The notes under the pieces: generated by a model | Told to the model about the DNA's origin: nothing | What the model saw: the letters and a program-made list of their open reading frames with translations, nothing else | Database searches by the model: none | Position numbers and translations under genes: made by a program | IMG/VR virus record: IMGVR_UViG_3300044844_001004 | Length of the DNA: 64,000 nt | Source of the DNA: a virus | Reading direction: 5' to 3' (one strand) | Shown here: positions 9,793 through 40,879 of the stretch, in pieces | How the letters are laid out: every line of letters begins with the position of its first letter | How positions within the stretch are numbered: position 1 is the stretch's first letter

Positions 9793-9793
9793 G

Positions 9794-12437: not shown

Positions 12438-12438
12438 A

Positions 12439-16162: not shown

Positions 16163-16187
16163 ACCACCTCACGTCGGGAGATAAATC

Positions 16188-17438: not shown

Positions 17439-17446
17439 CCCAACCC

Positions 17447-17471: not shown

Positions 17472-17483
17472 ACAACCAACCTC

Positions 17484-18820: not shown

Positions 18821-18823
18821 TCC

Positions 18824-19747: not shown

Positions 19748-19751
19748 ACAT

Positions 19752-19773
19752 CCGGGGTAGCTCCGGCTCCCGG
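19752..19773 (+). terminator. stem-loop between structural genes
   Basis: CCGGGGTAGC-TCCG-GCTCCCGG forms about 8 bp with a 2-nt bulge. There is no U tract. Confidence 0.25.
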
Positions 19774-19810
19774 CGTATCAACTGAATAAATCTCGAAAGA
19801 GCGGGGAATC

Positions 19811-20278: not shown

Positions 20279-20281
20279 CCA

Positions 20282-24924: not shown

Positions 24925-25854
24925 ATGCCTTTCTTATCAGGAGTTCAACCGCAGCAGGCGCCTAAGCCTGTTGAGCAACAGCCGGCACCAGTCAAGAAGC
25001 CAGCGGTCCAAGCGCAGCCAGCGCCTCCGCCAGCCCAACAGCCGAGCGCACAACCACGCCAAGCCACTGCGCCGATGTCGAAATACGACCAACCGCAGCA
25101 GATGGCCTACAGCCGAACGCTACAACCGAAGCAGCCGCAAGCCCAGTCGTACGGACGTCAGCCTCAAAGACAGCAGGCCCAGCAGCCACGCCAGCAGGTC
25201 CAGCCGCAGAGTGGCACTTACTCCCCGCGCCAACAGTCGAGCATGGGGTATGGATACCAGCCGCAACCGCAGCCCCGGCAGCGGCAGCAACCGCAGCCAC
25301 AACTACCAGCGCAGGGCAGCGACGAGTACAATAACTACGACCCCAGAGCGCGAGCGGAAATTGACGCGCAGCGGCGGTATCAAGGCCAGAGCGGCGGCAT
25401 GAATGGCTATCGGTCGACATACGATCAAATAAAACCGCAGCCGCAAAATGGCGGATACAACCCGCGAGAGATGCAGTCTCGTGCCGCGCAGCAAGCGCAG
25501 GTGCCGTCTAGCCGCCTACAGCAAGGAACATACGTTGGAGAAGGCGTCTACGCTGACGGCTCGCCGATGCCGCCAGACTCGGGAATGGCTAACTTCCAGG
25601 ATGACGGTCGCAGGTTTGCAGCGGCAGCCTTCCCTGGACAAGCGCCGACGCCCTCTAGCGGTTTCAATGGCCAGTCACTCGTCCAGTCCAACGGCGGCCC
25701 AGACGGTGGGGTGTATAGCGGGTTCGATCAAGGCGCACCAGATATTCCACTGCCGCTTGAGCAGCCAGAAGAAGGAATGAGGCGAATGACCGAACGCGGT
25801 AACGCTGGCGGCGGTGATGCTTGGTGGCAGAGATTGATTCAGAGGGGGCGCTAA
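24925..25854 (+). CDS. Q/P/Y/G-rich low-complexity protein (309 aa)
   Basis: Track ORF with runs such as QPQPQPRQRQQPQPQLPAQ. Confidence 0.6.
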   Translation: MPFLSGVQPQQAPKPVEQQPAPVKKPAVQAQPAPPPAQQPSAQPRQATAPMSKYDQPQQMAYSRTLQPKQPQAQSYGRQPQRQQAQQPRQQVQPQSGTYSPRQQSSMGYGYQPQPQPRQRQQPQPQLPAQGSDEYNNYDPRARAEIDAQRRYQGQSGGMNGYRSTYDQIKPQPQNGGYNPREMQSRAAQQAQVPSSRLQQGTYVGEGVYADGSPMPPDSGMANFQDDGRRFAAAAFPGQAPTPSSGFNGQSLVQSNGGPDGGVYSGFDQGAPDIPLPLEQPEEGMRRMTERGNAGGGDAWWQRLIQRGR

Positions 25855-27507
25855 ATGGGAACTCAGATGGCTATGCCGCGTCCTAGCAAATACCAGCGCA
25901 GGCCAGCTCCTCTACCGATGGAGTGGGAGGGTGAGGCCTACAATAAAGACGGATCTCCGCCGATGAGCAATCGCCTTGGCGAAGGAACGCCGGTTGGTGG
26001 CGACCCGTACAACGGAAGCGATGCTGGAGACGGCCAGTACAATCCAGGAAGTTACCCCGGCGGCGCCCCCGGCTACGATCGCTATAGCGGCGACAACGTC
26101 GGCGACATGATTACGAACGACCGGAACTTCGCCTACGGTCGCGGTGACGAGTTATTCCAGAACGCCAAGGACAACACCGCCAACAACGAGCGCATCAAGG
26201 AAAACTACCGCTCCTACGGCGACGAGGTCTACGACCCGCTCATTGGCGGCCGTGGCGGGTACAATCCCGACGAGGCCAGCCGGATCGACCGATCTGGTGA
26301 GTTCGACCAGTTCACGGCGAACGACGCCGATTACGAAGGCAACTTCCTGACTGGCGACGAGACGAACCAGATCATGGGCAACCCGTGGGAGCGAGCCGCC
26401 TACTTTAATCCGGAAGCCGCCGAAGGTCAACAAAACGAATCCTCTGCGCGCCAGCGCGGTGCCGTCGACGACATGGAACGCGGGATGTACGAGAGCCTGG
26501 ACGGCCAGCTCGGCCTTTCCGACGAATACTCGCAAGGCGTCGACCGGACTCTTTCCGGAACCGCTGATCGAGCTCGCGGCTCGTACGACCCAGCCTCGCT
26601 CCGCGCCGACAAGACCTCCCTCGACCGGATCAAGATGACTCCGGAAGAGGAGGCGATGATCGTCACGAAGGCGGGAATCGATGGTGGCGCGAAATACCGC
26701 TCCGCCGCCGGTGAACTGGACCGCCGGAACCGCGCCGCTGGCGGTGATCCAATCGCCGGTGCCGCAATGCGTGGCCGGTATCTGCGAGACGCCGCCGGTG
26801 ACGCCGCTGACGCTATGACCGGGGCCCGCGTGGCCGCTTCGAACGCCCGCGCCAGTCGCGAGGGGACAGCCGAAACTCTCCGCATGGGCGGCGAGCGCAC
26901 GGCGGCCGACATCGGGACCGGCGTTGAGTTGTCTCTCGGGAACCAGGCGCTCCAGGCGAACACGACGAAGGAAGGCCTGCGGCTGGGCTCGCAGCGCGAC
27001 ATCGCCAACCGCCGCATGGATATCGCCACCACCGGCGGGAAAACTCGCCTCGGCGCCGAACAGGACATCAACGCCCAGCAGCGGCAAGTCGGGCAGTTCA
27101 ACACGACGACCGGGACCGGCATCGCCACCGGGATCGAGCGGGACACGTCCGATCGCGCCGCATCGGTCGCCGGAAATCGGCAGGCCACCCGCCGAGGAAA
27201 CCAGACGCAGCGCTTCAGCCAGGGAGCCACCAGAACTGGAGCCTCGTCCGATATGGCCCAGACGGTCGCAAACGCTCGCCGGGACGACGCGAAGGAAGGC
27301 CGCGGCTACATCCGCGAGCAGCAGACGCAGGCGAACGCCAACTCGCAAGCCGGGATGAACCGCCAGGCGAACATCTACGCGACTCAGGGTCAACTCGGCC
27401 AGGGAGCGACGAACACGGCGCTTCGCAGGGATCAGGCGCCGAAGTGGTGGGAGAAAGTGATGGCCGCCGGGGCGCAGGCCGCCGGCGCAGCAGCGGGGGC
27501 GTCGTAA
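25855..27507 (+). CDS. internal-virion/ejection-like hypothetical protein (550 aa)
   Basis: Track ORF that starts immediately after the previous stop. It is G/D/R/A-rich. Confidence 0.6.
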   Translation: MGTQMAMPRPSKYQRRPAPLPMEWEGEAYNKDGSPPMSNRLGEGTPVGGDPYNGSDAGDGQYNPGSYPGGAPGYDRYSGDNVGDMITNDRNFAYGRGDELFQNAKDNTANNERIKENYRSYGDEVYDPLIGGRGGYNPDEASRIDRSGEFDQFTANDADYEGNFLTGDETNQIMGNPWERAAYFNPEAAEGQQNESSARQRGAVDDMERGMYESLDGQLGLSDEYSQGVDRTLSGTADRARGSYDPASLRADKTSLDRIKMTPEEEAMIVTKAGIDGGAKYRSAAGELDRRNRAAGGDPIAGAAMRGRYLRDAAGDAADAMTGARVAASNARASREGTAETLRMGGERTAADIGTGVELSLGNQALQANTTKEGLRLGSQRDIANRRMDIATTGGKTRLGAEQDINAQQRQVGQFNTTTGTGIATGIERDTSDRAASVAGNRQATRRGNQTQRFSQGATRTGASSDMAQTVANARRDDAKEGRGYIREQQTQANANSQAGMNRQANIYATQGQLGQGATNTALRRDQAPKWWEKVMAAGAQAAGAAAGAS

Positions 27508-27731
27508 TGGACTGGGCAAAAGTAGGTAAAGTCGCTGGTGCAGCCGCGCAGGGATACACTCGCGGCGGAGGTGCCGGTGCTGCTATCGGCGTCTTCGGCA
27601 GTCTCATGGACAAGCGGAAAAAGAAAAAGAAGGCCAGTGAACTTTCGACGGAAGCGTCTGACATGGGCGACTCCCCTGCCGACGAAAACCAGATCAAGAT
27701 GTGGGGAGAGGACGAAGAGGGGGACTGGTAA
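27507..27731 (+). CDS. hypothetical small protein with a Gly/Ala-rich helix, a K-run and an acidic tail (74 aa)
   Basis: TAATG overlap with the previous gene. Sequence: MDWAKVGKVAGAAAQGY...KRKKKKKASELS...EDEEGDW. Confidence 0.5.
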   Translation: MDWAKVGKVAGAAAQGYTRGGGAGAAIGVFGSLMDKRKKKKKASELSTEASDMGDSPADENQIKMWGEDEEGDW

Positions 27732-29035
27732 TGCCGACGATTCTCGATAGGATCCACTCACGCACTCGGCCGCAACCGTACCGCTCGGACGGCCAGCCGG
27801 AAGCCGACTTCGAGCTCTGGGAGAACGGCGACGACATCCCTGTCCCGAAGGTCAGCATGGATGCCAACGACGGTTTGGATGATGACGAATCCGGTCCAGG
27901 CAGTCAGACCGACGACTATGGCAACATGCCGAACGCGAATCCAACGTCATACGACCGGTACCGTGGCGCCATCGAGAAGAAGGCGGCTTGGGAGCAAACG
28001 CGCCCGGGTATCTCCGACCACAAGCCGAAGGGTTGGCAGCGAGCGCTGGCCGGTGCCGCAAACTTCGGCGCCGGGTACGTCAACGCCGGCGGCCGAGTGC
28101 GCGTGGACCCAAAAGCCATGGAGTCGATCAACTCATCGTTATTGCGACCGGGCTATCAACGCGATATGGAGAAGTGGAGCGATCAGGCTGGAAGGATCAA
28201 TGCCGAGGTCGACGCCACAGGGCGCGAGATGCAGATGGACAACCAGCAGACCCGGGCGCGGCTGGATGCAGAGCGGGCGACGGCCTACAATGCAAACCAG
28301 AACGCGCAGGCGTCGCGGGCTCGGCGGCAAGAGCAGGAGATCGGCCGGCGGAAGTGGATGTCTAGCGACGGACTCAACGCTTGGCGAGAAAACGAAGACG
28401 GAACCGGCATTGAAAAGCGGGAGATCCGCCCGCCGTCACCTGGCCGCCCGGTGCCGGAAACGAAGGCTGAAGAGAAGGCCCGCTTATTGAAAGAGTCGCG
28501 AGAGGTCATGGGCCACAAGGACGGCTCTGACGAACAGAAGGCGTATCTCGGAGACTTCGCCGCGAAAGAACGCTTGAAGGCCGCAAATCGACCAGCGCGT
28601 GGTGGCGGCCGTGGCCGCGCAGAACCTCGTCGCATCGGCACGCCAGGAGAGTTCAATGGTGTCCGGAAGGACAAAGTCAGCGCGCTGCAGAAGTTGGAAG
28701 CCGACCTTTCGAAGCAGTTGGAAGAACTGAACACCACCTACCCAGGCGACGGAGATGATCCGACGACTAAGAATCTCCGCGTGGAGTGGCAAAAGAAGCA
28801 CGACAAAGAGGTTGCCGACCACGAGGCGAAAAAGAAGATGGTCATGGCCGAGTACGACGCCGGAGTCACCGGGCTCGGCGGATCAGTGGTGCCACGGCAA
28901 GCCACCGCCGCCCCGCCGCCATCGGCTCCGGCTGGTGGTGGGGAGGTAAGAGTGATGCTCCCAAATGGCAAAGAGGCCATTCTTCCGAATGAGCAGGCAG
29001 CAAAAGCGTATAAGTTGAAGTACGGACTTAAATAA
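27731..29035 (+). CDS. charged coiled-coil hypothetical protein (434 aa)
   Basis: TAATG overlap (internal ATG of track ORF 27701..29035). It is K/E/R/Q-rich. Confidence 0.6.
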   Translation: MPTILDRIHSRTRPQPYRSDGQPEADFELWENGDDIPVPKVSMDANDGLDDDESGPGSQTDDYGNMPNANPTSYDRYRGAIEKKAAWEQTRPGISDHKPKGWQRALAGAANFGAGYVNAGGRVRVDPKAMESINSSLLRPGYQRDMEKWSDQAGRINAEVDATGREMQMDNQQTRARLDAERATAYNANQNAQASRARRQEQEIGRRKWMSSDGLNAWRENEDGTGIEKREIRPPSPGRPVPETKAEEKARLLKESREVMGHKDGSDEQKAYLGDFAAKERLKAANRPARGGGRGRAEPRRIGTPGEFNGVRKDKVSALQKLEADLSKQLEELNTTYPGDGDDPTTKNLRVEWQKKHDKEVADHEAKKKMVMAEYDAGVTGLGGSVVPRQATAAPPPSAPAGGGEVRVMLPNGKEAILPNEQAAKAYKLKYGLK

Positions 29036-32000
29036 TGGCCGATCAGAAAATCGACTACGAGGCTGGCCTGAAGGAGTTTGGAGGCGTCCTCGCTCCGGAC
29101 TACGAAACAGGGTTGAAAGAGTTCGGCGGAACCATCGCCCCCTCGCGTCCCCTCGCATCCTCGCATAGCGAGGAGCCAATTCCCCTCGCTACGAGGGGCG
29201 CAGAATCCTCGCCTCCTCGCCTTGCTCCTCGCGTCCAAGATGTGTTCGGCCCAGAGCAATCCTGGATCCGCGAGCAGGCCGCCAGCAAGCCGCCAGCATT
29301 CAACTCTCCCGTCAAGGATCCATCTCCAGTTGTCCAAGACCGCCCAGGACCGGAATCGGTGCGCCCGATGGCCCCCACCTCTATCCCTCCTACGGTGGAG
29401 ACAACTCCAGTCGGTCGCGCCAATGCTCCTGTTCCCGGCCGAATCCCGGGGATGGAGCGATTGGGCGGCGCGGCACCTGGTGTGCCGCCGGTATCCGCGC
29501 AGATCAACGAAACCAACGCCCCTTCGCTTTCCGGTGATGTCGGTGGAGGATTTGTCCGCGGTGTGGCGTCTGGCGCCTTTGCAATCCCGCGCGCTCTCAG
29601 TCGCGTACCCAGCGGGTTCCGTGACGACATTAACTCCCTTCGCAGGACGCGGGAAGACATCGAGCCGAACCGCTTTGGACTCCGCACTCCAGAGCAGGTG
29701 GCCGAAGATGACGCCCGCCTGCGGCAGATTTCCAACAGCGATATCAACCGGTTTGAGCAGGCCGCGCTCCCCGCCGCCCCCGTGACAGGCGCTGGTAAGT
29801 TCACAGAAGCGCTCGGCTCGACGGCGCCGTACATGGCCGCCGGCGTTGCTGGCCCGGCTGGCCCGGCGGCACTTGGCATTCTCGCCGGTACCGAGGAGTC
29901 TCTTGGCCGTTCTGATGCCAGCGGGATCCCGTTGAGTGACGCCCAGCGGCTTGGCGTGGGTGCGGCCGGCGCCGCCATCGGATCCACGGAGGCCTTGCCG
30001 TTCGGCCGGCTGCTTGGACGACTCAAAGGTGCCGGCGTGATTGCCGACGCGGTCGACGAGACGCAGTTGGTGAAGCAGTTGTTCCCGGGGCTCAAGGACT
30101 ACGCGGTATCCGCCGGCAAGCAGGCGATAGAGGAAGGTGTCCAGGAAGGAACCTCCAACATCCTGCAGGATGTCACCGAGGCGTCGTACGGTGGCCGTCC
30201 CGTCAACCGCATCGGCGAAGGACTTGGCGAGTCAGTTACGACCGGCGGCGGTGTCGGGGCGCTCGTCGACGTGCTGACCACGCTCGCAGGTTCCCGCGCT
30301 GGCCGCGCCCGCCTTTCGCAGAACGGCGTTGACCCGGCCGCTTTGATGGCGTGGGTGCAATCGCAGGAAGTCTCCCCGTCGATGACGGCCGAGTTCGACG
30401 CGCTCGCCCGTGAGAACCGCGCCCCCAACCCTCCCCAAGCGGCGCCCATGGCCGCTCCCACCCCAAATCCAGCCGAGTCCCCCGCTTCGCCCCCACCCCA
30501 GCAGGCGGAGGTGGCCGCCCAGGTTCCTCCGCCCCCGCCCGGCTTCACGGTCGACCCCACTCCGGACGCGCTCGACCAGTTGGCGCAGGAGTTGAAGGCA
30601 AGGCAGCAGGGCGAAAATGCGGGAAATGCCACAAATAGCCTGAAAACGCCTGAAAACGCCTTAAATCCGCCCGCAAATGCCCCGGATGCGGGGATTGCGG
30701 GTATTGTTGCAAACAATGGAGTTAGCGGATTTAATCCCGCAAACACCCCCGCAAATCCCGCAACATCCCCCCGCACTATGGAAAACGCGGGGGGTGCGGG
30801 AATCTCCAGTAACTTCTCAAATAATCCTGCCCAGCCAGTTCCCGCACCGGGGCCGAGAGAGGAGGTGGTCCAGCCGGTACCCGTCGACGCTGCGGCCCCG
30901 GTGGCGGCAAGGATCAATGAGCCAGACTGGAAGCCTGTCGCGGCGAAGTGGTATGGCGACGCCTCTGGCGCCGTCGACTACGTGTGGAAGATCGGCGAGG
31001 ACCGGTCGTACGAGATGGTTCCGTTCGGGAACGAGGATCAGGCGCGCCTCATCCGCAAGTGGGACGGCGAGGATCAAGACCTTGGAGTGGTTGACAGCCT
31101 GGAAGAAGCCAGCCGAGTCGCAAAACAAGATGCCTCGGAAATGTTTGCGTACGACAATCCAGCACAGGAGTCCGATGCCCCGATTCCACCCGAAGCTCCT
31201 CCGCCGCCCAGTGCCGTGGAGGCTGCGGCGCCTGAAGCGCAACCACCAGCCGCGCCGAAAGAACCTCCGGCGGGAGTAGCAGCGTCGGTCAAGCGCTACC
31301 TCGACACGATCGCCGACGTCAACCGGCAGTTGGCCGAAGCACGCACCGTCGACGACAAGTTCGGCGGCGAAGGCCGTTACGAGAACGAAGTGTGGGACCG
31401 CCTGATGGGCGAAGGCGGAGCTATCACCGCCGAAGCGAGCAAGAAGCTGCAGGTGTTCCGCGACCTCGCCGTTAAGAACGGTGTCGACGCCGAGGCCTTC
31501 ATCGAAAAGATGGGCGGTATGCCGGAGTCGCCGGCGCTGAGTGATCGCGCGAAGAAGTACCGCGGTGAGTCTGTTCCGCCGGCTCTGGAGTCGCCTGGCG
31601 AGCGCAGTGAGGCGGAGAAGGTAGTAGACGAGATTGTAGGCGACAGCGGCGGGACCGTGGCGAGCGTCGACGGATTGATTGACTCGTACTTCAGCGACCC
31701 TCGCAAGGCAGTGCTGGATGAGATCAAGAAGCGGCTGACGGACCTGCAATACAACCAGGTCGCGTTCGACGAACTGACGAACGAGCAGCAAACCGCCATC
31801 AGCTTTATCATGGCGAACAAGGTGACCGACGACGCGGACCTGCCGACCGTCAAGATCCGCCGCGCCGGCCAGCCTTTCTCCACCCCGACCGTCCCGATTG
31901 AGGATCGCGGCGATGCCTACATGGATCGGATGTTTGCCATCAAGCGCAGAATCCGCAAGGGAGAGGTGCCTTCGAACAAGGACATGGCCATCCTTTCCGA

Positions 32001-35000
32001 CGCCGACCGCGCCTACATGGTGAAGTTCGGCGAGGCGGAGGGAGTTGTCATTCCGCCCCGGGCGGCCAAAGGGAAGAAGTCGGCCGCCGTGGAGGAGCCA
32101 GTGGCACCGCCGGCGCCCGTCGAGCAACCCAAAGACTTCCAGTGGAACGGCCCGGTGCCGAACTTCGAGAACTTCAAGGGGCGGGAGCCTAATCCTGCAC
32201 CCAGCGCGCCGCCCCCGGCAGACTCGAAGGTTGTGTACGGGAAGAAGTCCGGAACCGCCAAATTATCCCGTGGATACTCGGTACCGTTCACTTGGGGTGT
32301 TGTCCCGGCTGAATCGCTCATCCTCTCCAATGAAGACAATGGCGATATCAATAATCGGTTTCCGAAAGACCTGCAGCCACGGCAGCGCGACCGCGCCGCG
32401 TCAGAGATGCAGATTCAAGGCATCGCCGACAAGCTCGACCCTGAACAGGTGGCAGAGAGCTATGTTGCCGGTGACGGCGCCCCATTCATTTTTGACGACA
32501 TGGCCGTCGAGAGCGGCAACGGCCGCGGGCTCGCTATTCGCCGCGCCTACCGCCGGAAGATGGCCCAGGCAGAGGCATATCGCAACTGGCTGGAGAACAA
32601 CGCGGAACGGTTCGGGCTGTCAACCGCCGACGTCATGGCGATCGAGAATCCAGTTCTTGTCCGCGTCCGAACCGGCCTCCCGGAAGGTGTCTCCCGCCAG
32701 GACTTCGCCCGGGACGCCAACGAAGACACGAAGGCGCAGATGGCCGAAGGCGAGCAGGCGATGGTCGACGCGAAGTCGATGTCGGATGAACTCGTCTCGA
32801 TGTTCATGCCGAACGAAACCGGCGAGATTGCCACGCGCGCCAACTTCCCGTTCATCCTGCGATTCATTGAGCAGGTGGTTCCGGAGGGGCAGCGCGGCGC
32901 AATGCAATTGCCAGACAAGTCGATTTCGAAGAAGGGAATTGACCGGATCCGCAACGCTGTCTTCGCCCGCGCCTACAATGACCGCGGTATCGTCGAGCGG
33001 CTGGCCGAAGATCCGGACGACAACATCAAGTCGGTCGTTGGCGGGCTCACGATCGCGGCGCCGAAAATCATCTGGATGCGCAGTGGCATTGAGGCCGGCG
33101 ACTTCCACGATCTCGATATCTCCCCGGAGATTGCCGCCGCCGCCGCGCGCCTGTCGTACCTGCGAGAGAACCGGATTCCGCTGTCCGACTACCTGAACCA
33201 GATGACGTTGGAGCCGCGCGATCCGATCGAGGACGCGCTGTTGACGATGTTCAATGGGTACGGGCGGTCCAGCGCGAATGTCGCCGAAGTCCTTGGTGAG
33301 TACGTGGACGCAGTGCAGGCGCTCGGCAATCCAAAACAGGAGTCAATGTTCGGCGAGTCGACCATCCCGACCAAGCTGGAGTTGCTGGGTGCTATCGTTG
33401 AGGAGAAGAGGGCGCGAGATGAAGCCGCAAAGCGAGAAAAGCAGCAGCGTAAAGCAGGCCGAGAAGCCGACCAGGCCGGCGGATTGGATGCAGAAGGTGA
33501 GCCCGGCGGGACTGGAGCGGGCGAAGGCAGTCCTGGCCCGCGTCCGCGAGCAAAAGGCGAAGGCGAATCCGAAGTAGTCGGCTACGCCCCGGGAGGCACG
33601 CTCGGCGCCAAGCCGCCCAGCAACGGCAGCCGCGGCAAGAAAGCCACGCCGCCACCCGCCGGCCCCCGCACCGGAACCGCCGTCTCCCGCTCGGAGATCG
33701 TCAAGAACCTCTCGTCGTTCCTGAACAACATCCCGATCCGCACCGGTGGATTCCGCGAGCGCGCCGCCGGCATCTTCAAGGTTCGGCAGAACGTCATCCG
33801 CACCGCGAAGGCGCTGGACCTGGAAACCATCTCTCATGAGATCGGCCATGCCATCCACAAATACCTGTGGGGAACTCGCAAGGGAAGCCTCGTGGCTCTC
33901 AATCTGGCACCGCTGCGGCCGTTCCGCAACGAACTCGGCTTGCTCGACTACGACCAGAACAAGAAACGCGCCTACGAGGGGTTCGCGGAGTACATCCGCC
34001 TGCGCATCACGAAGCCTGCAGAGGCAAAGCAGCGGGCGCCGAAGTTCCACGCTTGGTTCAACCAGAAGCTCGGCGAGGCGCCGGAACTGGCTGACGTGCT
34101 GAAGAAGGCGCAGGATCAATACCTGAGCTGGGATATCCAGCCGTCGACGGTGAAGCTCGCAAAAAGCATCGACACGAAGCCAAACCACGAGACGTTCATG
34201 AAGCGCGTGACGGACGGGCTCACTGACTTCCGCTACAACTGGATCGACGACAAGACCGGCCTGCGGGACGCCGTCGAACTGTTCCAGAAGCTCGGCGCGA
34301 CCGTCGCGGACACCGCCAACGCCTACCGGCTGGCCCGCACCCTGAGCGGCACGTTTACCCGCGCCAATTTCGCCATCACCAACAAGACCGTGGGGGCCGA
34401 CAACGCCCCGAACGGCGCCGGCCTGGGAGAGATCCTGAAGCCGATCGCCGATCGCGATGTCTCCGAACGGAATCCGGCCTTCCAAAAGCTCGTGGATGAC
34501 TGGGGGATCCGGTTGTCCGATGACGGCGACGGCGACGGCATGGATGACTTCCGCGTCTACATCGTGGCCCGCCGGCTCCTCGACTACCGCGACAAAGGGC
34601 TGGAAACCGGCTTCACGCTGCGGGAATTGAAACGGGCGGTAGCCGATACTGAGACGCCAGCGTTGAAAGCAGCGGCAGATGAACTGCACGAATATTCCGG
34701 CCGGATCCTGGACTACGCCTACGAGAAAGGCGCCATGTCGGAAGCCACGCGCGAGGCCATCCGGAGCAAGAATGAATTCTACGTCCCACTGCACCGCGTC
34801 ATGGACAACGTATCCGAGGAGGACGCGAAGGCGATGCTCGGGCGCAAGATGCTCGACCTCAACTCGCCGATCCTGAAGCGCAAAGGAAGTACCCGGGAGA
34901 TCATCGACCCGCTCGAAAGCGTCATCAAGAACACCTACGCCATCATGTCGTTTGCCGACCGCAATGCCGTCGCGCAGGCGCTCGTGAAGCAGGCGGAGCG

Positions 35001-36828
35001 AGTGTCCGACCAAGGGTACCTCGTTGAGTCTGGAATCGTGAACCCGATGAAGGCGACGACGTTCAACCTGAAAGAAGTCAGCAAGGACATCATGGCCGCG
35101 CTGGAGGAGGCCGGGATCGACGGCAGTGAGTTGGAGCTCGACCACATGTCGACCATCTTCCGGCCGAACATGGACCCGCGCCGGTCCAACGGGGTGGTTC
35201 GCGTCATTGTCGACGGCGTGCCGAAGCTGTTCCAGATGGACAAGAACCTGATTCGCGCGCTCGACAATACGGAGGCGCAATTAGTTGACCCGTTCAAAAA
35301 GGCCGCCGCTAATGCCGCTGCTTCATTGCGCTTCGGCGCCACCGCCGGCAACCCGGAATTCATTCTCACCAACTTCTTCCGCGATCAGGGCATCGCTGGC
35401 ATCCAGAGCCGCAATGGATACCTCCCGATCATCTCCGGAATGTGGGGTGCCTTCAAAATGCTGTCGGATCCGAAGGCTTTCCAGGAGTGGCAGTTGGCTG
35501 GAGGTGCCACGGCGGCGATGATGCCGCTGACGCGCAAGAATCTCCGCCTCACCGTCGATAAAGTGACGAAGTCGAAGAAGGATCTCGTCCTCACTCATCC
35601 GGCGCAAATCTTCCCGCTCATGCGTGATGCGCTGACGTTCTTCGGAGAGAAATCGGAAGCGTCGACCAGGTTCGCTGAATACCTGCTGGCCAAGGGCAAG
35701 GGCAAGACCACCGCGGAGGCAGTGTTCGACTCCAGGGACGTATCGCTCGACTTTGAACGCATGGGCAAAATCGCAAAGACGGTCAACCAATTCGTCCCAT
35801 TCTTCTCCGTGGCGCTGAACGCCGGCGAGCGGTTCGTGGAGATGCACAACCCGCGGAACAAGAAGCAGTTCGCGCAGTCGCTCGCGAAAGGGCTCCTTGG
35901 CATCACGATCCCGACGATGATGCTGTGGTTACTGAACAAGGACGACGAGGAGTACAAGAACGTCGAGGCGTGGAAGCGCGATCTGTTCTGGCTGATCCCG
36001 ACGAAGTATTTCGACCCGTATTTATCGAAGGCCATTGGGGTTACTGCACGAGAAGCAGCCGGCCCGTTCATCCGGATCCCGAAGCCGCCGATGTGGGGGC
36101 AACTCTACGGATCGTTCTTCGAGCGCCTGGCTGATAGCCTGTACTCCAAAAACAAGCACGCCTTCGACGACTTCAAAAAGACGGCATTCCAGACGATCAT
36201 GCCGCCGGCCGCCATCCAAGCGATAAAGCCATTCGAGGAGGTGTTCAGTAACTACAACGCCTTCACCGATCGGCCCATTGAGACGGCTCAAATGCAAAAG
36301 CTGTCGGCGGAAAACCGGTATACGCCGACCACCTCGGAACTGTCGAAGGGTATTTCGAAAGTTATCGGCGGATCGCTCTCGCCGGTCCAGGTCGAGCACT
36401 TGCTCCTCGGCTACACCGCCGGGCTCGGCCGAGTTGCAATCACCGGCGGCGAGGAATTGGCCGGGCTCCGCAAGGACAGGCCAGCAATGGAGGCATCAGA
36501 GCGGCCGTTCGTGCGCGCGTTCGCCACCCCGTCTAGCCCATACTTGTCGACCAACTTCAAACTGTTCAAGGAGCGCTTGGAAAAGCTGAAACAGAAGCGG
36601 GAAGACTTTAAGTTCTCCAAGAATCCGAAGTACCGGATGACGTCCGCGGATGAGGCGAAACTCGCCAAGCTGGAAGACATCAACGAAAGCGTCAACGAGA
36701 TTCGATCGAAGCAGTTCAAGGTGTACGGAAACAAAGCATTATCCAGGGATGAGAAGCGGCGGCAGATCGACCTGATGAACAAGCAGCGCGACGAGATCCT
36801 GAAGCGCACAAAGCCGTTGTACGATTAA
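29035..36828 (+). CDS. giant polyvalent virion protein (2597 aa) with a ParB/Srx-like region and an HExxH zincin motif
   Basis: Single uninterrupted ORF. It starts with a tandem DYE(A/T)GLKEFGG repeat and has P/A/N-rich linkers. A ParB-like stretch (DLQPRQRDR...ESGNGRGLAIRRAY) and HEIGH plus a downstream EGFAEY are present, followed by a ~900-aa conserved-looking C-terminal body. Confidence 0.85.
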   Translation: MADQKIDYEAGLKEFGGVLAPDYETGLKEFGGTIAPSRPLASSHSEEPIPLATRGAESSPPRLAPRVQDVFGPEQSWIREQAASKPPAFNSPVKDPSPVVQDRPGPESVRPMAPTSIPPTVETTPVGRANAPVPGRIPGMERLGGAAPGVPPVSAQINETNAPSLSGDVGGGFVRGVASGAFAIPRALSRVPSGFRDDINSLRRTREDIEPNRFGLRTPEQVAEDDARLRQISNSDINRFEQAALPAAPVTGAGKFTEALGSTAPYMAAGVAGPAGPAALGILAGTEESLGRSDASGIPLSDAQRLGVGAAGAAIGSTEALPFGRLLGRLKGAGVIADAVDETQLVKQLFPGLKDYAVSAGKQAIEEGVQEGTSNILQDVTEASYGGRPVNRIGEGLGESVTTGGGVGALVDVLTTLAGSRAGRARLSQNGVDPAALMAWVQSQEVSPSMTAEFDALARENRAPNPPQAAPMAAPTPNPAESPASPPPQQAEVAAQVPPPPPGFTVDPTPDALDQLAQELKARQQGENAGNATNSLKTPENALNPPANAPDAGIAGIVANNGVSGFNPANTPANPATSPRTMENAGGAGISSNFSNNPAQPVPAPGPREEVVQPVPVDAAAPVAARINEPDWKPVAAKWYGDASGAVDYVWKIGEDRSYEMVPFGNEDQARLIRKWDGEDQDLGVVDSLEEASRVAKQDASEMFAYDNPAQESDAPIPPEAPPPPSAVEAAAPEAQPPAAPKEPPAGVAASVKRYLDTIADVNRQLAEARTVDDKFGGEGRYENEVWDRLMGEGGAITAEASKKLQVFRDLAVKNGVDAEAFIEKMGGMPESPALSDRAKKYRGESVPPALESPGERSEAEKVVDEIVGDSGGTVASVDGLIDSYFSDPRKAVLDEIKKRLTDLQYNQVAFDELTNEQQTAISFIMANKVTDDADLPTVKIRRAGQPFSTPTVPIEDRGDAYMDRMFAIKRRIRKGEVPSNKDMAILSDADRAYMVKFGEAEGVVIPPRAAKGKKSAAVEEPVAPPAPVEQPKDFQWNGPVPNFENFKGREPNPAPSAPPPADSKVVYGKKSGTAKLSRGYSVPFTWGVVPAESLILSNEDNGDINNRFPKDLQPRQRDRAASEMQIQGIADKLDPEQVAESYVAGDGAPFIFDDMAVESGNGRGLAIRRAYRRKMAQAEAYRNWLENNAERFGLSTADVMAIENPVLVRVRTGLPEGVSRQDFARDANEDTKAQMAEGEQAMVDAKSMSDELVSMFMPNETGEIATRANFPFILRFIEQVVPEGQRGAMQLPDKSISKKGIDRIRNAVFARAYNDRGIVERLAEDPDDNIKSVVGGLTIAAPKIIWMRSGIEAGDFHDLDISPEIAAAAARLSYLRENRIPLSDYLNQMTLEPRDPIEDALLTMFNGYGRSSANVAEVLGEYVDAVQALGNPKQESMFGESTIPTKLELLGAIVEEKRARDEAAKREKQQRKAGREADQAGGLDAEGEPGGTGAGEGSPGPRPRAKGEGESEVVGYAPGGTLGAKPPSNGSRGKKATPPPAGPRTGTAVSRSEIVKNLSSFLNNIPIRTGGFRERAAGIFKVRQNVIRTAKALDLETISHEIGHAIHKYLWGTRKGSLVALNLAPLRPFRNELGLLDYDQNKKRAYEGFAEYIRLRITKPAEAKQRAPKFHAWFNQKLGEAPELADVLKKAQDQYLSWDIQPSTVKLAKSIDTKPNHETFMKRVTDGLTDFRYNWIDDKTGLRDAVELFQKLGATVADTANAYRLARTLSGTFTRANFAITNKTVGADNAPNGAGLGEILKPIADRDVSERNPAFQKLVDDWGIRLSDDGDGDGMDDFRVYIVARRLLDYRDKGLETGFTLRELKRAVADTETPALKAAADELHEYSGRILDYAYEKGAMSEATREAIRSKNEFYVPLHRVMDNVSEEDAKAMLGRKMLDLNSPILKRKGSTREIIDPLESVIKNTYAIMSFADRNAVAQALVKQAERVSDQGYLVESGIVNPMKATTFNLKEVSKDIMAALEEAGIDGSELELDHMSTIFRPNMDPRRSNGVVRVIVDGVPKLFQMDKNLIRALDNTEAQLVDPFKKAAANAAASLRFGATAGNPEFILTNFFRDQGIAGIQSRNGYLPIISGMWGAFKMLSDPKAFQEWQLAGGATAAMMPLTRKNLRLTVDKVTKSKKDLVLTHPAQIFPLMRDALTFFGEKSEASTRFAEYLLAKGKGKTTAEAVFDSRDVSLDFERMGKIAKTVNQFVPFFSVALNAGERFVEMHNPRNKKQFAQSLAKGLLGITIPTMMLWLLNKDDEEYKNVEAWKRDLFWLIPTKYFDPYLSKAIGVTAREAAGPFIRIPKPPMWGQLYGSFFERLADSLYSKNKHAFDDFKKTAFQTIMPPAAIQAIKPFEEVFSNYNAFTDRPIETAQMQKLSAENRYTPTTSELSKGISKVIGGSLSPVQVEHLLLGYTAGLGRVAITGGEELAGLRKDRPAMEASERPFVRAFATPSSPYLSTNFKLFKERLEKLKQKREDFKFSKNPKYRMTSADEAKLAKLEDINESVNEIRSKQFKVYGNKALSRDEKRRQIDLMNKQRDEILKRTKPLYD
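32280..32650 (+). other. ParB/sulfiredoxin-like domain inside the giant ORF
   Basis: VVPAESLILSNED...FPKDLQPRQRDRAASEMQIQGIADKLDPEQV...APFIFDDMAVESGNGRGLAIRRAY matches the ParB N-terminal pattern (xxQPRxR ... GxGRxxA). Confidence 0.5.
33700..34100 (+). other. zincin-like metallopeptidase motif region inside the giant ORF
   Basis: HEIGH is encoded at 33835-33849 (ETISHEIGHAIHKYLWG). A downstream Glu candidate lies in YEGFAEYIRL at about 33973-33993. Confidence 0.45.
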
Positions 36829-37401: not shown

Positions 37402-38358
37402 ATGAAACACCTACTCCTTCTCATCGCGCTGGCCGCATCCGCCCAGCAAATCAAGATCAATCCGATCACCGGGTTGCCTGATCTGGTTGGTTCCAACAGT
37501 GGTGCCGTCTCCAGCGTCACGGCTGGCCCGCTGGGCGCTCTAGTCTGCACGCCGACGACAGGCGCGGTGGTGTGCGATGCGGACCCTTTGTATGTCCCGA
37601 ACAAGACCGGCAGCAATACGTGGACTGGAGTGAATGACTTTACAGGGGCTACGGTAACTGGGATCGGCGGTGGCACCGCCCGCACCACCTACGCCGCGCT
37701 CCCGGCTTGCACTTTGGCTAACTCCGGCACGCTGTACAAGTTGACGGATTCCATCTACGAAGCGCAGTGCAACGGGACTTCGTACTCATATTGGACCGGG
37801 CAGAAGTACATCCCGACGCTGCCGTGGAGCAACGGCACCACATTCGGCGCTGGTGCGACAATTACTGCGACGACCGGGAGCGTGTTGTTTGATAGTGGGG
37901 CTGGTACAGGCGGGGATTCCATTCGAGCAGCGATCAAAGCTGTGCCCGCCGCCCCGTACACGATTATTCTCGATGTTGACGTTGCGATAAACGCCACTGT
38001 AAGTTCGTCGTGCGGGTTGGTTTTAACTGACGGAACCACCGCCGCATCGAACAAAGTCATTACCCTCATGCAAAGTCACATTGGCCTCAATTCGACCAAA
38101 CTAAATAACGCGACGTCGTGGAACTCCACCTACCTGAACTACGTTCAATCGACGTCCCGAGGTAAGATATCCTTTCGCATGGTTGACGACAATGTGAATC
38201 GAACGTGGTCCGTCTCGCCTGATCGGATCAACTGGAAACAAGTCATGCAGCAAGGGAGGACGGACTTTTTGACCGCGACCCATTATGGGTATGGCTGCAA
38301 TATGAACGGTGTCAGCGGGGACACTGTGATGGTGGTTGAAGGGTTGTATGCGCAGTAG
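37402..38358 (+). CDS. signal-peptide fibre-like protein (318 aa)
   Basis: Internal ATG of track ORF 37330..38358. Sequence begins MKHLLLLIALAASA|QQIKINPITGLPDLVG. Confidence 0.6.
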   Translation: MKHLLLLIALAASAQQIKINPITGLPDLVGSNSGAVSSVTAGPLGALVCTPTTGAVVCDADPLYVPNKTGSNTWTGVNDFTGATVTGIGGGTARTTYAALPACTLANSGTLYKLTDSIYEAQCNGTSYSYWTGQKYIPTLPWSNGTTFGAGATITATTGSVLFDSGAGTGGDSIRAAIKAVPAAPYTIILDVDVAINATVSSSCGLVLTDGTTAASNKVITLMQSHIGLNSTKLNNATSWNSTYLNYVQSTSRGKISFRMVDDNVNRTWSVSPDRINWKQVMQQGRTDFLTATHYGYGCNMNGVSGDTVMVVEGLYAQ

Positions 38359-40879
38359 CTTACTACTCCTGCTGTGTGCCCCGCTCATAGCCCAGACCTA
38401 CAGCGCTGTCAGCGTGGACAAAATCACCCCCTCGGGGGCCCGCGTCTTGTGGACCACCAGCATTGCCACGCCTTCGCACATCAACTGGGGTACGGTATCC
38501 GGTTCGCTGACTAGCAGTAACGCCTCGGTCAACGGATTCAACACCACCGCGCATCAATGGTATGTCTCAGGCGCTCCACCGGCCACAGTCATCTACTACA
38601 AAGTGTGCGCTTCAGCCGGATCATGCGATGCGACTGAGAGAAGTTTCACGACTTCCGCCCTGCCATCTCCGTACCCAGCTATCCCGATTGCACCAGCGGC
38701 GTTTGCCCTTCCGGCGATGCCGACGATTGACGGGACGACTCTAACGGTCGATTCGACGTGCAGTAATTTCAAGGCGCACATCGACACTCTCAAGGCGCTC
38801 GATGGGAACCTGAATCACAAACTAGTGATCCCGGCTGGCGTTGTATGCGCGCCGCACAGTGGGGCCACTACGGGAAACGCAAACTCCTCTCAAGTCGCCT
38901 TTCCCACGAAGACCGGTGCAAACCCAAGTGGAACCGGAGTAATCATCATCACGACGGACGCAACCTTGCCACCTGAAGGGGCGCGGATCACGTCGGCTTG
39001 GTCCACCTCCTACATGGTTAACACCGTAGTTGGGATTCTGGAACTATCTACGGCACCGTCAAGCGGCGGTTTATGCGTGTCTGGTCAGATGTACTGGGAT
39101 TACCTAATTGCCGTTGGTGGGACATGGGCGTTAAAGGAATGCACTACGCCAGCGGCTGGCGCTGGTGGCTACACCCTCGTCGCAAAAACTACATTCACTG
39201 GCACTCCGCCGACGCCATGCACCGCCAATACGTGGTACCAGAAGACAGACGCCTCTGACGTGGCCCTAGGGCTGTACCGCTGCGACGACCTGGGCCGGAT
39301 GTTGCAAGTCCAGATCGGTCTGCAATCGGCGTTTGAGTTCTCCATAGGCACGACGGCTAAAGGGTATCGCTTTGTAGGCATCACCTTCGACGCTCTTCGC
39401 TGGCCTACTGCCAGCCCTCCCAGTTGGCTCACCTCCAATTCGTTCGTCTATGGCTCGTATTTTTCATCGCTGTTTGATTTCTCCACGGCCACAAACGTAG
39501 CCATCGATCGATGCCGCTTCATCGGTGGCTCGTACCCAAACCGCTATCAGAACTTCATCAAGCTGGCTGGAACCTACAACTACATTGCCAACTCTTCCAT
39601 CGAAGGTATCTCCCTTGCGCTGACGCCAGCCGGTGGCGCGGAACCATCGAACCAAACTGAGTTCACTGGCATCAATATCAGCGGCGGTCAATACATCCTG
39701 TTCGACAATAACTGGATGGAGGGTCCAGGAATACTACTGCATGGCACCGACGATACCGCATCCCAATACGCCCAAGACGTCCGGGTAACGCGGAACTACT
39801 TCTCCATCCCCGACACTTACTGGTACAACTCTGCGACCAGCAACGGGCACTTCTATCACAACCGGCACGGCGTCGAATTGAAGCGCGGCGTCCGCTGGTT
39901 GATCGAGGGGAACACCTTCGCTGGCGGGTTTTCAACGGTCAATCAGGCCCACGCCGTCGATGTCAGTTTCCGGCCAGGCAGCTATGGCGCCACGGTGCTG
40001 CTGACCGACATCGACATCACGAACAACACCATCACGGACCACAGCAACGCGGTCTACCTGTCCGGGCACAACGACAACGACTCCGAACAGGGACAAGCCG
40101 TCCAGCGGGTCCGAGTGGCGAACAACCTGATGTACGGCATCGACGGGGACCGCTTTGCTGCCGGCTACGGACAACGTTTTGGCAACTGCGTCCAGACCGC
40201 CCTCGGCGGCGAAGACGTCATCGTCGAAAACAACATCTGCCTCCAAACCGGGAACGGCCAATACCCAGCGGTTCTGCTCACCGACACCGCCGGAGGTCTT
40301 TACGGCTCCTTGAAGTACGTCCGGAACTTCGCCACCCACGTCGTCCCTCAGAACCTGACCACGGGGATTAGCCGGGCTAACAACGCCAACCGGGGCACTG
40401 CAACCCTCACTGCCGCCTTCCAGCAGTACACGGCGACGCAAAACGGCTTCATTAACCTCAGCAGCCAAACGACGACGGACTACCCCGCCGGGAACTCCTG
40501 GCCCGCGACTCTTGCTGACGTCGGTTTTGCCAACACCGCGGTGAACGACTATCGCCTGAAGTTCTCCAGCACCTACGCGCCAACCGGGGCCGGGGCCGAC
40601 ATCGACTCGATCCGCGCCACCTACGGCGAGGTGTACAACCTTCGCGCCCTGTCCATCACTTCAACGGGGGCGACGGTCTACTACACCGCGCCGGATGCTA
40701 CGACGGCTTGCACGGTCGAGGTAGGCACATCGGCTACCCCTGGCACCGGCACCCGCGTGACGGACTCCACGGGTAGCCGGTTTAGATCAAAGGCGCTCAC
40801 TGGGCTGGCGTCGGGGACTGGGTATTATTACAGGATCTATTGTTCGCAGATGGCGTCGGGGACGTTTACGACGAACTAA
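38348..40879 (+). CDS. signal-peptide FN3 / right-handed beta-helix / FN3 protein (polysaccharide depolymerase or tailspike-like, 843 aa)
   Basis: Starts MRSSLLLLLCAPLIA|QT. FN3-like ends are present (ITPSGARVLWTT...YYKVC and LSITSTGATVYYTA...YYYRIYC). The central part has beta-helix repeats (NNTITDHSNAVYLSG, RVANNLMYG, VENNICLQ). Confidence 0.7.
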   Translation: MRSSLLLLLCAPLIAQTYSAVSVDKITPSGARVLWTTSIATPSHINWGTVSGSLTSSNASVNGFNTTAHQWYVSGAPPATVIYYKVCASAGSCDATERSFTTSALPSPYPAIPIAPAAFALPAMPTIDGTTLTVDSTCSNFKAHIDTLKALDGNLNHKLVIPAGVVCAPHSGATTGNANSSQVAFPTKTGANPSGTGVIIITTDATLPPEGARITSAWSTSYMVNTVVGILELSTAPSSGGLCVSGQMYWDYLIAVGGTWALKECTTPAAGAGGYTLVAKTTFTGTPPTPCTANTWYQKTDASDVALGLYRCDDLGRMLQVQIGLQSAFEFSIGTTAKGYRFVGITFDALRWPTASPPSWLTSNSFVYGSYFSSLFDFSTATNVAIDRCRFIGGSYPNRYQNFIKLAGTYNYIANSSIEGISLALTPAGGAEPSNQTEFTGINISGGQYILFDNNWMEGPGILLHGTDDTASQYAQDVRVTRNYFSIPDTYWYNSATSNGHFYHNRHGVELKRGVRWLIEGNTFAGGFSTVNQAHAVDVSFRPGSYGATVLLTDIDITNNTITDHSNAVYLSGHNDNDSEQGQAVQRVRVANNLMYGIDGDRFAAGYGQRFGNCVQTALGGEDVIVENNICLQTGNGQYPAVLLTDTAGGLYGSLKYVRNFATHVVPQNLTTGISRANNANRGTATLTAAFQQYTATQNGFINLSSQTTTDYPAGNSWPATLADVGFANTAVNDYRLKFSSTYAPTGAGADIDSIRATYGEVYNLRALSITSTGATVYYTAPDATTACTVEVGTSATPGTGTRVTDSTGSRFRSKALTGLASGTGYYYRIYCSQMASGTFTTN

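Follow-up and report, generated by a model that had tools for sequence, protein, structure and literature searches.

A giant phage-type polyvalent protein combining a DdrB-like module, a putative zincin peptidase and an LPD38 body

The window (the whole stretch of phage DNA that was analysed, 64,000 nucleotides) carries, on the + strand, the giant gene as one uninterrupted ORF of 2597 aa, with exactly the extent and the motif positions given in the first-pass annotation. The gene lies within a co-directional + strand block that runs from 18080 to 40879. Directly before it, the ORFs between 24925 and 29035 encode Q/P/G/N/R-rich proteins of low complexity, as had been described, and the fibre genes expected behind it find support in a downstream 847-aa ORF with a weak fibre- or spike-like match (Pur_ac_phosph_N, 30.2 bits against a cutoff of 30 bits). 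The homolog of this ORF in the related metagenomic contig L001 has a faint fn3 match as well, and matches of the Pur_ac_phosph_N and fn3 kind are frequent in tail fibre or spike proteins. The same gene order (low-complexity proteins, giant protein, large tail protein) is found in L001 and in the Vibrio podophage 41E34.2. No model identified a portal gene in the window, and its candidate capsid and portal genes gave zero matches by tblastn against a phage collection, in which megablast of the giant gene also found no match. The features of the locus are as follows.

9794-11629, + strand: large terminase, in the late block with the giant gene
19811-20275, + strand: scaffold-like gene, in the late block with the giant gene
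29035..36828, + strand: whole ORF, 2597 aa, ATG start; phage-type large polyvalent protein
29053..29142, + strand: twin 15-aa motif, DYEAGLKEFGGVLAP / DYETGLKEFGGTIAP; some relatives have a comparable twin motif
29143..29481, + strand: Pro-rich linker; FGPEQSW and TVETTPVGRANAPVPGRIPGMERLGG are short conserved motifs in it
29443-29469, + strand: IPGMERLGG, within the Pro-rich linker
29482..30384, + strand: Gly/Ala-rich N-domain, aa ~150-450, delimited by homolog alignment
30385..32229, + strand: P/A/N-rich linker (aa ~451-640) and middle region (aa ~641-1065)
32230..33534, + strand: DdrB-like module, aa 1066-1500 (Pfam PF18763, phrog_5143, phrog_2299)
32272-32670, + strand: DdrB-ParB core; a helical extension completes the module
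33196-33216, + strand: NQMTLEP, a degenerate upstream copy (QMTLE) of the next motif
33334..33357, + strand: KQESMFGE (Q-x-x-[ML]-F-G), towards the end of the DdrB module; resembles a beta-clamp-binding motif
33685..34179, + strand: zincin (gluzincin-type) domain, with HEIGH at 33835-33849 and the predicted third-ligand Glu in EGFAEY at 33976-33993
34180..36825, + strand: C-terminal body, mostly helical, aa 1716-2597, with a hydrophobic helix, NKDDEEY and LPD38
35878-35934, + strand: hydrophobic helix, aa 2282-2300
35944-36513, + strand: LPD38 (PF18857), aa 2304-2493, E=4.9e-33

The start codon at 29035 and the stop codon of the preceding gene overlap (TAATG). In the public gene call (P0001), the protein is 2458 aa long and begins at M140. 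This database start is rejected on account of conservation upstream of M140, and the start at 29035 is preferred because a homolog (P0002, 83% identity) aligns from residue 1 and because M140 falls within the conserved motif IPGMERLGG.

The polypeptide combines DdrB-ParB, zincin and LPD38 domains with at least two further globular regions that have no family match. Pfam searches with pieces of 400-500 aa found nothing besides ddrB-ParB and LPD38, and an NCBIfam search with the whole protein gave no match. BLAST maps divide the protein into three independent blocks, at aa ~125-445, ~1050-1520 and 1505-2597, the last of which is C-terminal in all homologs mapped in this way.

The tandem repeat reported at the N-terminus is present as DYEAGLKEFGGVLAP and DYETGLKEFGGTIAP at aa 7-21 and 22-36. 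A comparable twin motif that starts within the first 11 residues occurs in 27 of 71 relatives; its sequence varies between lineages, and the scores are above the 95th percentile of control windows. It is possible that the twin motif is a capsid-targeting or docking signal. The P/A-rich linkers noted earlier are real in the ORF, and the linker motifs FGPEQSW and TVETTPVGRANAPVPGRIPGMERLGG are kept in P0002-P0009, P0011 and P0014. The N-domain that follows has no Pfam match and is rare, with 33 matches in an exhaustive HMMER search of 1.84 billion representative proteins. The matched proteins are nearly all 1300-4450 aa long and carry the domain near the N-terminus, and seven of the distant matches have the C-module (the peptidase and the C-terminal body described below) at the C-terminus as well. 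The linker and middle region that come next matched nothing in Pfam, PHROG, NCBIfam or PDB sequences (the PDB sequence search with aa 601-1059 was likewise empty). In P0004 and P0007, aa 849-1059 are conserved jointly with the ParB block.

The DdrB-like module contains the ParB-like stretch that had been proposed, and the Pfam profile search places it far above the cutoff: ddrB-ParB (PF18763) matches aa 1080-1212 with E=2.7e-30 and 105.4 bits against a cutoff of 27.6 bits. DLQPRQRDR lies at aa 1112-1120 (32368-32394) and ESGNGRGLAIRRAY at aa 1159-1172 (32509-32550). Profile comparison shows homology between the whole block of ~430 aa and the N-terminal 400 aa of phage P1 DdrB, with P1 DdrB aa 28-428 matching the module HMM at E=2.1e-110. 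Invariant in the module family are Q-P-R-x-R-x-R, S-G-N-x-R (N1161 and R1163 in ORF numbering), a tyrosine (Y1181) and P-x-L-V. The hallmarks of DdrB-like ParB domains are an active-site arginine, an Asp or Asn that ends strand 2, and a tyrosine carried by an additional helix ahead of the terminal strand (PMC5512222). These hallmark residues are present here, in the invariant S-G-N-x-R, in Y1181 and in the P-x-L-V terminal strand, and the AF2 model of the module (pLDDT 88.9) has strand 98-101, helix 103-115, helix 117-129 and strand 147-153 around them. The link of the core to the ParB/Srx superfamily comes from the Pfam family name and from Iyer et al. A Foldseek search of the PDB with the 441-aa model returned only weak helical-bundle matches and no ParB, neither the module HMM nor the core HMM matched a ParB among PDB sequences, and an hhalign comparison of the core alignment with a hand-entered sequence of B. 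subtilis Spo0J was negative.

The zincin domain has HEIGH at aa 1601-1605 and EGFAEY at aa 1648-1653, and the zincin call made from these motifs is upheld by the invariance of H1601, E1602, H1605 and E1648 across 16 homologs with identities as low as 20%. The HExxH with its downstream glutamate is a conserved gluzincin-type site, and the domain is a putative peptidase. No curated peptidase model, including the Pfam polyvalent-peptidase models, reaches threshold with the window protein. The profile of the peptidase family matches lethal factor (E=1.8e-4) and Pro-Pro endopeptidase/Zmp1 (E=0.011) in the PDB, and Pfam ATLF (PF07737) is matched by four of the 16 members, with a best E of 3.8e-5, the window sequence being below threshold. 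Foldseek also returned lethal factor, with a probability of 0.8-0.9 over ~172 columns and E>1, the query being 1050 aa long. These similarities weakly suggest that the nearest known peptidase family is anthrax lethal factor/M34, as a neighbor of the domain rather than as the family to which it belongs. Shared with lethal factor and Pro-Pro endopeptidase (MEROPS M34) are the HExxH, a glutamate ~43 residues downstream in an E-x-F-A-E helix, and a mostly conserved tyrosine 9-14 residues ahead of the third-ligand glutamate; the aligned site in lethal factor is presumably H686, E687, H690 and E735. Lethal factor is a secreted toxin, whereas the present domain is internal to a giant phage protein.

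The C-terminal body had been regarded as ~900 aa free of motifs, which does not hold, since it contains LPD38 and many conserved positions. LPD38 scores 115.3 bits against a cutoff of 27 bits, with the full length of the Pfam model covered. A recurring feature of 34 aligned homologs is a hydrophobic segment with an acidic DD/DE-rich motif after it. The AF2 model of aa 1548-2597 (pLDDT 82.4, pTM 0.76) presents the C-module as one confident unit, for which Foldseek found no fold match in the PDB apart from the peptidase. About 880 residues have a confident predicted fold unlike anything in the PDB, which makes them a structural target. In BFVD the model has 77 matches at E<=0.001, of which those that bear a name are large polyvalent proteins of phages, and the targets are mostly second or third fragments of long entries. 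The HMM of the C-module detects phi24B gp47 (E=3.9e-65) and Bcep22 gp75 (E=6.4e-61). One homolog is annotated 'putative portal', and a portal was considered as the identity of the body; it was rejected, as related phages have a separate portal gene (41E34.2) and no portal fold was matched by Foldseek.

On these features, the giant ORF is a fairly typical representative of the phage-type large polyvalent proteins already described (Iyer et al. 2017, J Bacteriol; PMC5512222) and not a new system. As in those proteins, DdrB-ParB, zincin and LPD38 are combined in one giant polypeptide, P/A-rich linkers lie between the domains, and the gene is found among the late structural genes of a terminase-bearing phage. 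DdrB-ParB and LPD38 are both restricted to phage-type polyvalent proteins (PMC5512222). The present protein differs in its peptidase, which has no Pfam polyvalent-peptidase match and is nearest to lethal factor/M34, and in its N-domain and aa 641-1065, which have no assigned family. It had been suggested that the domain combination, together with the parts lacking a family match, may hide new anti-defence or cell-envelope activities. The novelty of the former is overrated, the combination being a documented theme (Iyer et al. 2017), and no envelope activity was found in the parts without a family match. Otherwise, all parts of the first-pass interpretation that could be checked were upheld. 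What the protein does add is a new lineage for the class, from a very divergent metagenomic phage of ~64 kb. Large polyvalent proteins make up 12-22% of some podophage genomes, and none has a defined mechanism.

P1 DdrB aa 28-428 and aa ~1075-1460 of the giant protein are 37% identical by tblastn. The two share the QPR, SGNGR and Q-x-x-M-F motifs, and an HExxH peptidase lies further downstream in both. DdrB is a stand-alone protein of 995 aa, without the LPD38 body or the N-domain, and its HELGH peptidase belongs to another clade that is missed by the HMM of the present peptidase. The 400-residue module ties this Dar protein of P1 to the large polyvalent class. P1 itself is a myovirus in which incorporation of Dar proteins needs DarA and Hdf, and no relatives of DarA or Hdf were noticed in the present phage. 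DdrB belongs to the Dar anti-restriction system (PMC12810830; PMC5512222), and the Dar proteins, DdrB among them, are internal head proteins that are co-ejected with the DNA (PMC12810830).

phi24B gp47 (2807 aa) and the 'DarB-like' Bcep22 gp75/JC1 gp69 (~4600 aa) share the C-terminal body with LPD38, and their giant genes likewise close the structural module of a podophage. Their N-terminal cargo is unlike that of the present protein, with LPD1, LPD5 and MuF-C in phi24B gp47 and methylase and helicase in Bcep22 gp75, and the lethal-factor-like peptidase before the body (HMM positions 1-165) is not aligned in either gp47 or gp75. gp47 is abundant in purified phi24B virions by mass spectrometry and absent from the cryo-EM map (bioRxiv 10.64898/2026.04.10.717836), and JC1 gp69, which is 79% identical to Bcep22 gp75, had the second-highest score in virion mass spectrometry (PMC9144972). 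By analogy with such virion-protein homologs, at 22-28% identity, the present protein is probably packaged in the capsid and injected with the DNA.

The best explanation, with a probability of roughly 0.7, is that a conserved frame of N-domain and C-module surrounds variable cargo in a phage-type polyvalent protein that is made late, packaged, and expelled with the DNA. The N-terminal part of the frame would consist of the twin short motif, the IPGMERLGG linker motif and the Gly/Ala-rich N-domain, and the C-terminal part of the ~1050-aa module of zincin peptidase, helical body and LPD38. The cargo would here be the P1 DdrB-like module, viewed as a ParB/Srx-type nucleotide- or DNA-directed domain plus its helical extension, with about 400 aa that have no family match. 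Homologs carry instead methylase, helicase, 2H-phosphoesterase, Zeta-toxin and lysozyme domains (Pfam). In the proposed course of events, the protein would be synthesized late and packaged in the capsid alongside the low-complexity internal proteins encoded just upstream, with the frame guiding its entry into the head and its passage out through the tail, and would be expelled into the host together with the DNA. The peptidase may cut the polypeptide at the flexible P/A/G-rich linkers, which lie at aa ~450-640, 720-760, 1040-1075 and 1480-1550, and so free the DdrB-like module, which would act on or beside the incoming DNA and blunt host restriction, perhaps held at the DNA by a Q-x-x-M-F-G docking motif. 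Self-processing is no safe default, because N4 vRNAP and ArdC have similar peptidase domains and yet are transferred unprocessed (PMC5512222). A term search of PMC5512222 did not find the frame-plus-cargo layout, the twin N-terminal motifs or Q-x-x-M-F-G, with 0 occurrences of 'clamp'. The dissection of frame from exchangeable cargo indicates where such proteins could be engineered or deleted, and, if the frame-and-cargo reading is true, they would be natural vehicles for protein delivery into bacteria.

A less probable but serious alternative is a mainly structural role in ejection, in which the C-terminal body and its hydrophobic helix form or extend a trans-envelope conduit for the DNA and the peptidase attacks envelope components (peptidoglycan peptides, lipoproteins) instead of its own polypeptide. 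For gp47, such a conduit or envelope role has been put forward in the phi24B study (bioRxiv 10.64898/2026.04.10.717836). The gene position, here and in Vibrio phage 41E34.2, is that of the ejection proteins of P22-like podophages, and no other recognisable ejection protein was found in the window. The C-terminal body is also the sole part common to every relative, and the recurrence in 34 homologs of the hydrophobic helix with the acidic motif behind it would suit a conduit. The helix itself is less persuasive, since its hydropathy is borderline (0.6-2.3) and it lies inside a confident fold, where it is not obviously a free membrane segment. Outside the peptidase, the protein has no similarity to solved structures, and hence to no solved ejection protein (Foldseek PDB, Pfam, PHROGs). 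Homology to P22-type (gp7/gp20/gp16) or T7-type (gp14/15/16) ejection proteins was absent from the Pfam, PHROGs, PDB sequence and Foldseek PDB results, the PDB sequence search with the whole protein included, and with these proteins only the gene position is analogous. An attack on the envelope also fits poorly with lethal factor and Pro-Pro endopeptidase, which cleave proteins and not peptidoglycan. The conduit explanation overlaps with the frame-and-cargo reading, and places the main function in the envelope.

It is improbable that the protein stays out of the virion, either as a late anti-defence or superinfection-exclusion factor in the producing cell or as a co-opted remnant of a polyvalent protein. 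Some polyvalent proteins were apparently acquired by hosts for defence (Iyer et al., PMC5512222), but the present gene lies amid the + strand structural block with its start overlapping the upstream stop, its synteny is kept in related phages, and the homologs of both the C-terminal body and the cargo are virion proteins. A tail component, tape-measure-like or central-fibre, with enzymatic domains acting at the cell surface is more improbable still: the gene is directly followed by putative genes for fibres or spikes, searches of the window recognised no gene for a tape measure, tail tube or sheath, and a DdrB-like homolog in Alcaligenes phage Piluca is annotated 'tail protein', but the protein has globular domains and disordered linkers with no continuous coiled coil, its relatives are in short-tailed podophages with genomes of 34-40 kb, and phi24B gp47 is missing from the tail reconstruction.

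The Q-x-x-[ML]-F-G motif of the DdrB-like module is conserved, with Q in 18 of 19 aligned sequences, [ML] in 17/19, F in 15/19 and G in 14/19. The corresponding regular expression has 45 matches, against 8.6 +/- 3.0 in shuffled sequences. The pattern is also found in P1 DdrB (QGDMF) and in P0026 (QADMF), and at the extreme C-termini of solo homologs, as QIGLF in P0059 (a complete internal gene) and QMGMF in P0061. Motifs that bind the beta sliding clamp form the QL[SD]LF class, with the internal QADMF of E. coli DnaE as an example; beta-clamp-binding motifs were reportedly described by Dalrymple et al. in 2001. KQESMFG of the giant protein fits the Q-x-x-[LM]-F pattern of this class. Unlike a disordered tail, it forms a short helix in the AF2 model, with a pLDDT of ~87, and its upstream copy is degenerate. 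It is conceivable, though rather unlikely, that the DdrB-like module, here and in P1 DdrB and the solo relatives, acts after injection as an effector, docking on the beta sliding clamp of the host through this motif. If so, a ParB/Srx-type enzyme would be placed on or beside the entering phage DNA, for restriction protection or for commandeering clamp-dependent processes, and what DdrB does in the P1 Dar system, so far unexplained, would acquire a concrete and testable target. The motifs were also considered as cleavage sites for the peptidase, which is unlikely, since they are kept in solo proteins that have no peptidase and two proteins end exactly at the motif. A processed form of P1 DdrB of 76 kDa (~700 aa) has been reported (PMC5512222), and the DdrB motifs, at ~aa 355-410, do not fit with cleavage to that size.

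The giant protein (2597 aa) is encoded by one ATG-started ORF, 29035..36828 on the + strand, and belongs to a class that has been characterised before, the phage large polyvalent proteins. The first-pass annotation was accurate in its observations and essentially right in its interpretation; a sequence check located each feature it had noted at its position in the translated ORF, and the P/A-rich stretches are genuine. What is new here is limited to a lineage-specific domain combination, a peptidase clade without a curated model, two unassigned domains, and the twin-motif and clamp-motif leads. The features seen in the translation are:

aa 7-21 and 22-36, + strand: two 15-aa repeats
aa 1112-1120, + strand: DLQPRQRDR
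aa 1159-1172, + strand: ESGNGRGLAIRRAY
aa 1601-1605 (nt 33835-33849), + strand: HEIGH
aa 1648-1653, + strand: EGFAEY

In the public database the identical protein (P0001) is called with 2458 aa, beginning at M140, 139 codons late, and leaving ~400 nt upstream uncalled (1584-2001 of its locus L009; 29035-29451 of the window). This start was rejected because the upstream stretch is conserved in homologs. M140 sits within a conserved motif (IPGMERLGG), the alignment with homolog P0002 (83% identity) begins at residue 1, several homologs share motifs upstream of M140, and the start at 29035 overlaps the stop of the upstream gene (TAATG), as it also does in the syntenic contig L001. Position 29035 is thus the better start, and conservation in homologs shows 29035-29451 to be coding sequence.

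This N-terminal extension carries the twin motif. Pairs of 8-23-aa motifs that begin in the first 11 residues and outscore 95% of control windows occur in 27 of 71 relatives against ~3.5 expected by chance. Their sequences vary by lineage: DYEAGLKEFGG here, and DPLADILASAPP, KYPGAYDD, GAFDDLIPA or FDFDDDGxPV elsewhere. A recurring feature with non-conserved sequence suggests that they may serve as a lineage-specific docking or capsid-targeting signal.

BLAST maps of 43 homologs divide the protein into three independently distributed blocks, aa ~125-445, ~1050-1520 and 1505-2597, the last being C-terminal without exception. The domains preceding this C-module in relatives are, by Pfam, N6-methylase, SNF2 or helicase, 2H-phosphoesterase, Zeta-toxin and lysozyme. 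The N-domain (aa ~150-450) is rare: a search of 1.84 billion representative proteins gives 33 matches at E<=0.001. With few exceptions these are giant proteins with the domain close to the N-terminus, and seven distant ones also carry the C-module at their end. The block distribution, these two placements and the co-occurrence favour reading the giant protein as a putative conserved frame, made up of N-domain and C-module, that surrounds exchangeable cargo. The stretch aa 641-1065 gave no family match by Pfam on pieces or by PDB sequence search. Across the whole protein, PHROGs matched solely function-unknown families and NCBIfam nothing.

The C-terminal ~900 aa had been described as lacking a recognisable motif, which does not hold, since Pfam finds LPD38 (PF18857) at aa 2304-2493 (E=4.9e-33, far over the curated cutoff). 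AlphaFold2 of aa 1548-2597 with 34 aligned sequences gives a single confident unit (mean pLDDT 82.4, pTM 0.76). Foldseek of this model against PDB returned no fold match outside the peptidase, and there were 77 matches at E<=0.001 among predicted viral structures; of these, the ones that carry a name are phage large polyvalent proteins, and the target is mostly the second or third fragment of a long entry. One pairing recurs in the 34 aligned homologs: a hydrophobic segment (in the giant protein aa 2282-2300) and, after it, an acidic motif rich in DD/DE (in the giant protein N-K-D-D-E-E-Y).

The proposed HExxH zincin motif is borne out by 16 aligned homologs, the most distant at 20% identity: H1601, E1602, H1605 and E1648 never vary, and G1649 and E1652 hardly do, while no curated model matches the HEIGH region of the giant protein. 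The site is clearly under selection, and the invariant H, E, H with a downstream E is the gluzincin signature. Searched against PDB, the alignment profile matches anthrax lethal factor in its catalytic domain (E=1.8e-4) and, at E=0.011, Pro-Pro endopeptidase/Zmp1; in both, the HExxH aligns and so does the E-x-F-A-E helix. Pfam ATLF is matched by 4 of the 16 members (best E=3.8e-5). Lethal factor is also the sole specific Foldseek match in PDB, with probability 0.8-0.9 across ~172 columns, though E exceeds 1 owing to the query length of 1050 residues. From the profile, ATLF and Foldseek evidence, the domain is called a putative zincin peptidase nearest M34, yet not an M34 member.

The suggested ParB-like region corresponds to Pfam ddrB-ParB (PF18763, aa 1080-1212, E=2.7e-30, far over the curated cutoff), the core of a ~430-aa module. 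Another 25 proteins keep this module intact, and many of these are solo proteins 450-770 aa long. P1 DdrB is 37% identical to it by tblastn, and residues 28-428 of P1 DdrB match the module HMM (E=2.1e-110). P1 DdrB is a Dar internal head protein, co-ejected with DNA and implicated in protection from EcoB and EcoK (PMC12810830). The module invariants (Q-P-R-x-R-x-R, S-G-N-x-R, a Tyr and a P-x-L-V strand) agree with the description of the DdrB-like ParB family by Iyer et al., with an active-site Arg, an Asn/Asp ending strand 2 and a Tyr carried by an additional helix that precedes the final strand (PMC5512222). In a confident model (pLDDT 88.9) the invariants map to the matching structural elements. 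No ParB fold was among the Foldseek or HMM matches of the module in PDB, and hhalign of the core against an approximate Spo0J sequence gave no ParB match; the ParB/Srx fold is taken wholly from the literature. One solo DdrB-like gene (P0059, locus L011) is followed, after one small gene, by an 885-aa protein (9898-12555) that bears an ADP-ribosyltransferase toxin domain (ADPrib_exo_Tox) and may be another injected effector of that phage.

Two Q-x-x-[LM]-F-[GDE] motifs are conserved in the DdrB module; in the terminal one, 18 of 19 sequences have Q, 17 M or L, 15 F and 14 G, and the regex gives 45 matches against 8.6 +/- 3.0 in shuffled sequences. In the giant protein the upstream copy is degenerate, and the other is:

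aa 1434-1440, + strand: KQESMFG

P1 DdrB has QGDMF and QALGDMFG. The C-termini of P0059, a complete internal gene of a 35-kb contig, and of homolog P0061 are exactly QIGLF and QMGMF. Close homologs P0004-P0009 have a further Q-x-x-M-F-G copy ahead of the C-module, P-D-E-R-Q-S-S-M-F-G-D-(x)-E-V-V-G-Y-A-P (P0004 aa ~1795-1815), of which the giant protein retains just EVVGYAP. These motifs fit the beta-clamp-binding consensus QL[SD]LF (for example QADMF in DnaE). Clamp binding is rather unlikely; against it, AlphaFold2 places KQESMFG in a short confident helix, not a free tail; Iyer et al. do not mention clamps (PMC5512222).

The case for packaging is indirect and begins with the C-module. Its HMM matches phi24B gp47 (E=3.9e-65, aa 1903-2790), which is abundant in purified virions, invisible in the cryo-EM reconstruction and proposed by the study authors to be an encapsidated ejection protein (bioRxiv 10.64898/2026.04.10.717836). 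It also matches Bcep22 gp75 (E=6.4e-61, aa 3708-4593), and JC1 gp69, 79% identical to the latter, had the second-highest score in JC1 virion mass spectrometry (PMC9144972). The gene sits in a + strand late block with the large terminase and a scaffold-like gene, in identical order in L001 (62.8 kb). The low-complexity proteins reported ahead of it are three consecutive ORFs at 24925-29035 (309, 550 and 444 aa), extremely Q/P/G/N/R-rich, free of family matches and kept in position in L001; an internal or ejection role is plausible for them. Downstream, the 847-aa ORF 38336-40876, also conserved 3' of the giant gene in L001, has a weak C-terminal Pur_ac_phosph_N match, with an additional faint fn3 match in the L001 homolog, and is likely a tail fibre or spike. 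In Vibrio podophage 41E34.2 (36.8 kb) several coiled-coil proteins in a row stand ahead of the homolog and a 750-aa protein comes after it, and that phage has its own portal gene elsewhere in the genome.

In the best-supported account, the giant protein would be produced late, taken into the head and released together with the DNA; the peptidase may then cleave it at flexible linkers, after which the DdrB-like module would work on or near incoming DNA, countering restriction. What the analysis itself shows is which domains are present, which residues are conserved, how the parts are arranged and what they are homologous to; packaging, processing and anti-restriction activity are extrapolated from P1 and the polyvalent-protein literature. 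As a caveat on processing, N4 vRNAP and ArdC have comparable peptidase domains, yet travel unprocessed (PMC5512222). The main rival reading, possible but less likely, puts the chief role in the envelope, with the C-terminal body as a conduit; known ejection proteins give no fold or sequence match by Pfam, PHROGs or Foldseek against PDB.

The phage appears to represent a highly divergent lineage. For the large ORFs of 7495-23226 at the expected portal and major capsid positions, Pfam and PHROGs give no match, and neither does tblastn against 50,697 phage records. The portal-position ORF (12439-14703, 755 aa) follows the terminase, and the capsid-position ORF (20282-22168, 629 aa) follows the scaffold-like gene. 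ARAGORN finds no tRNA genes in the whole window, which is nearly all of a 64,134-bp JGI metagenome contig. Between the portal-position and scaffold-like genes, a minus-strand block at 14711-18053, with ORFs of 172, 71, 114, 548 and 136 aa, breaks the + strand morphogenesis genes.
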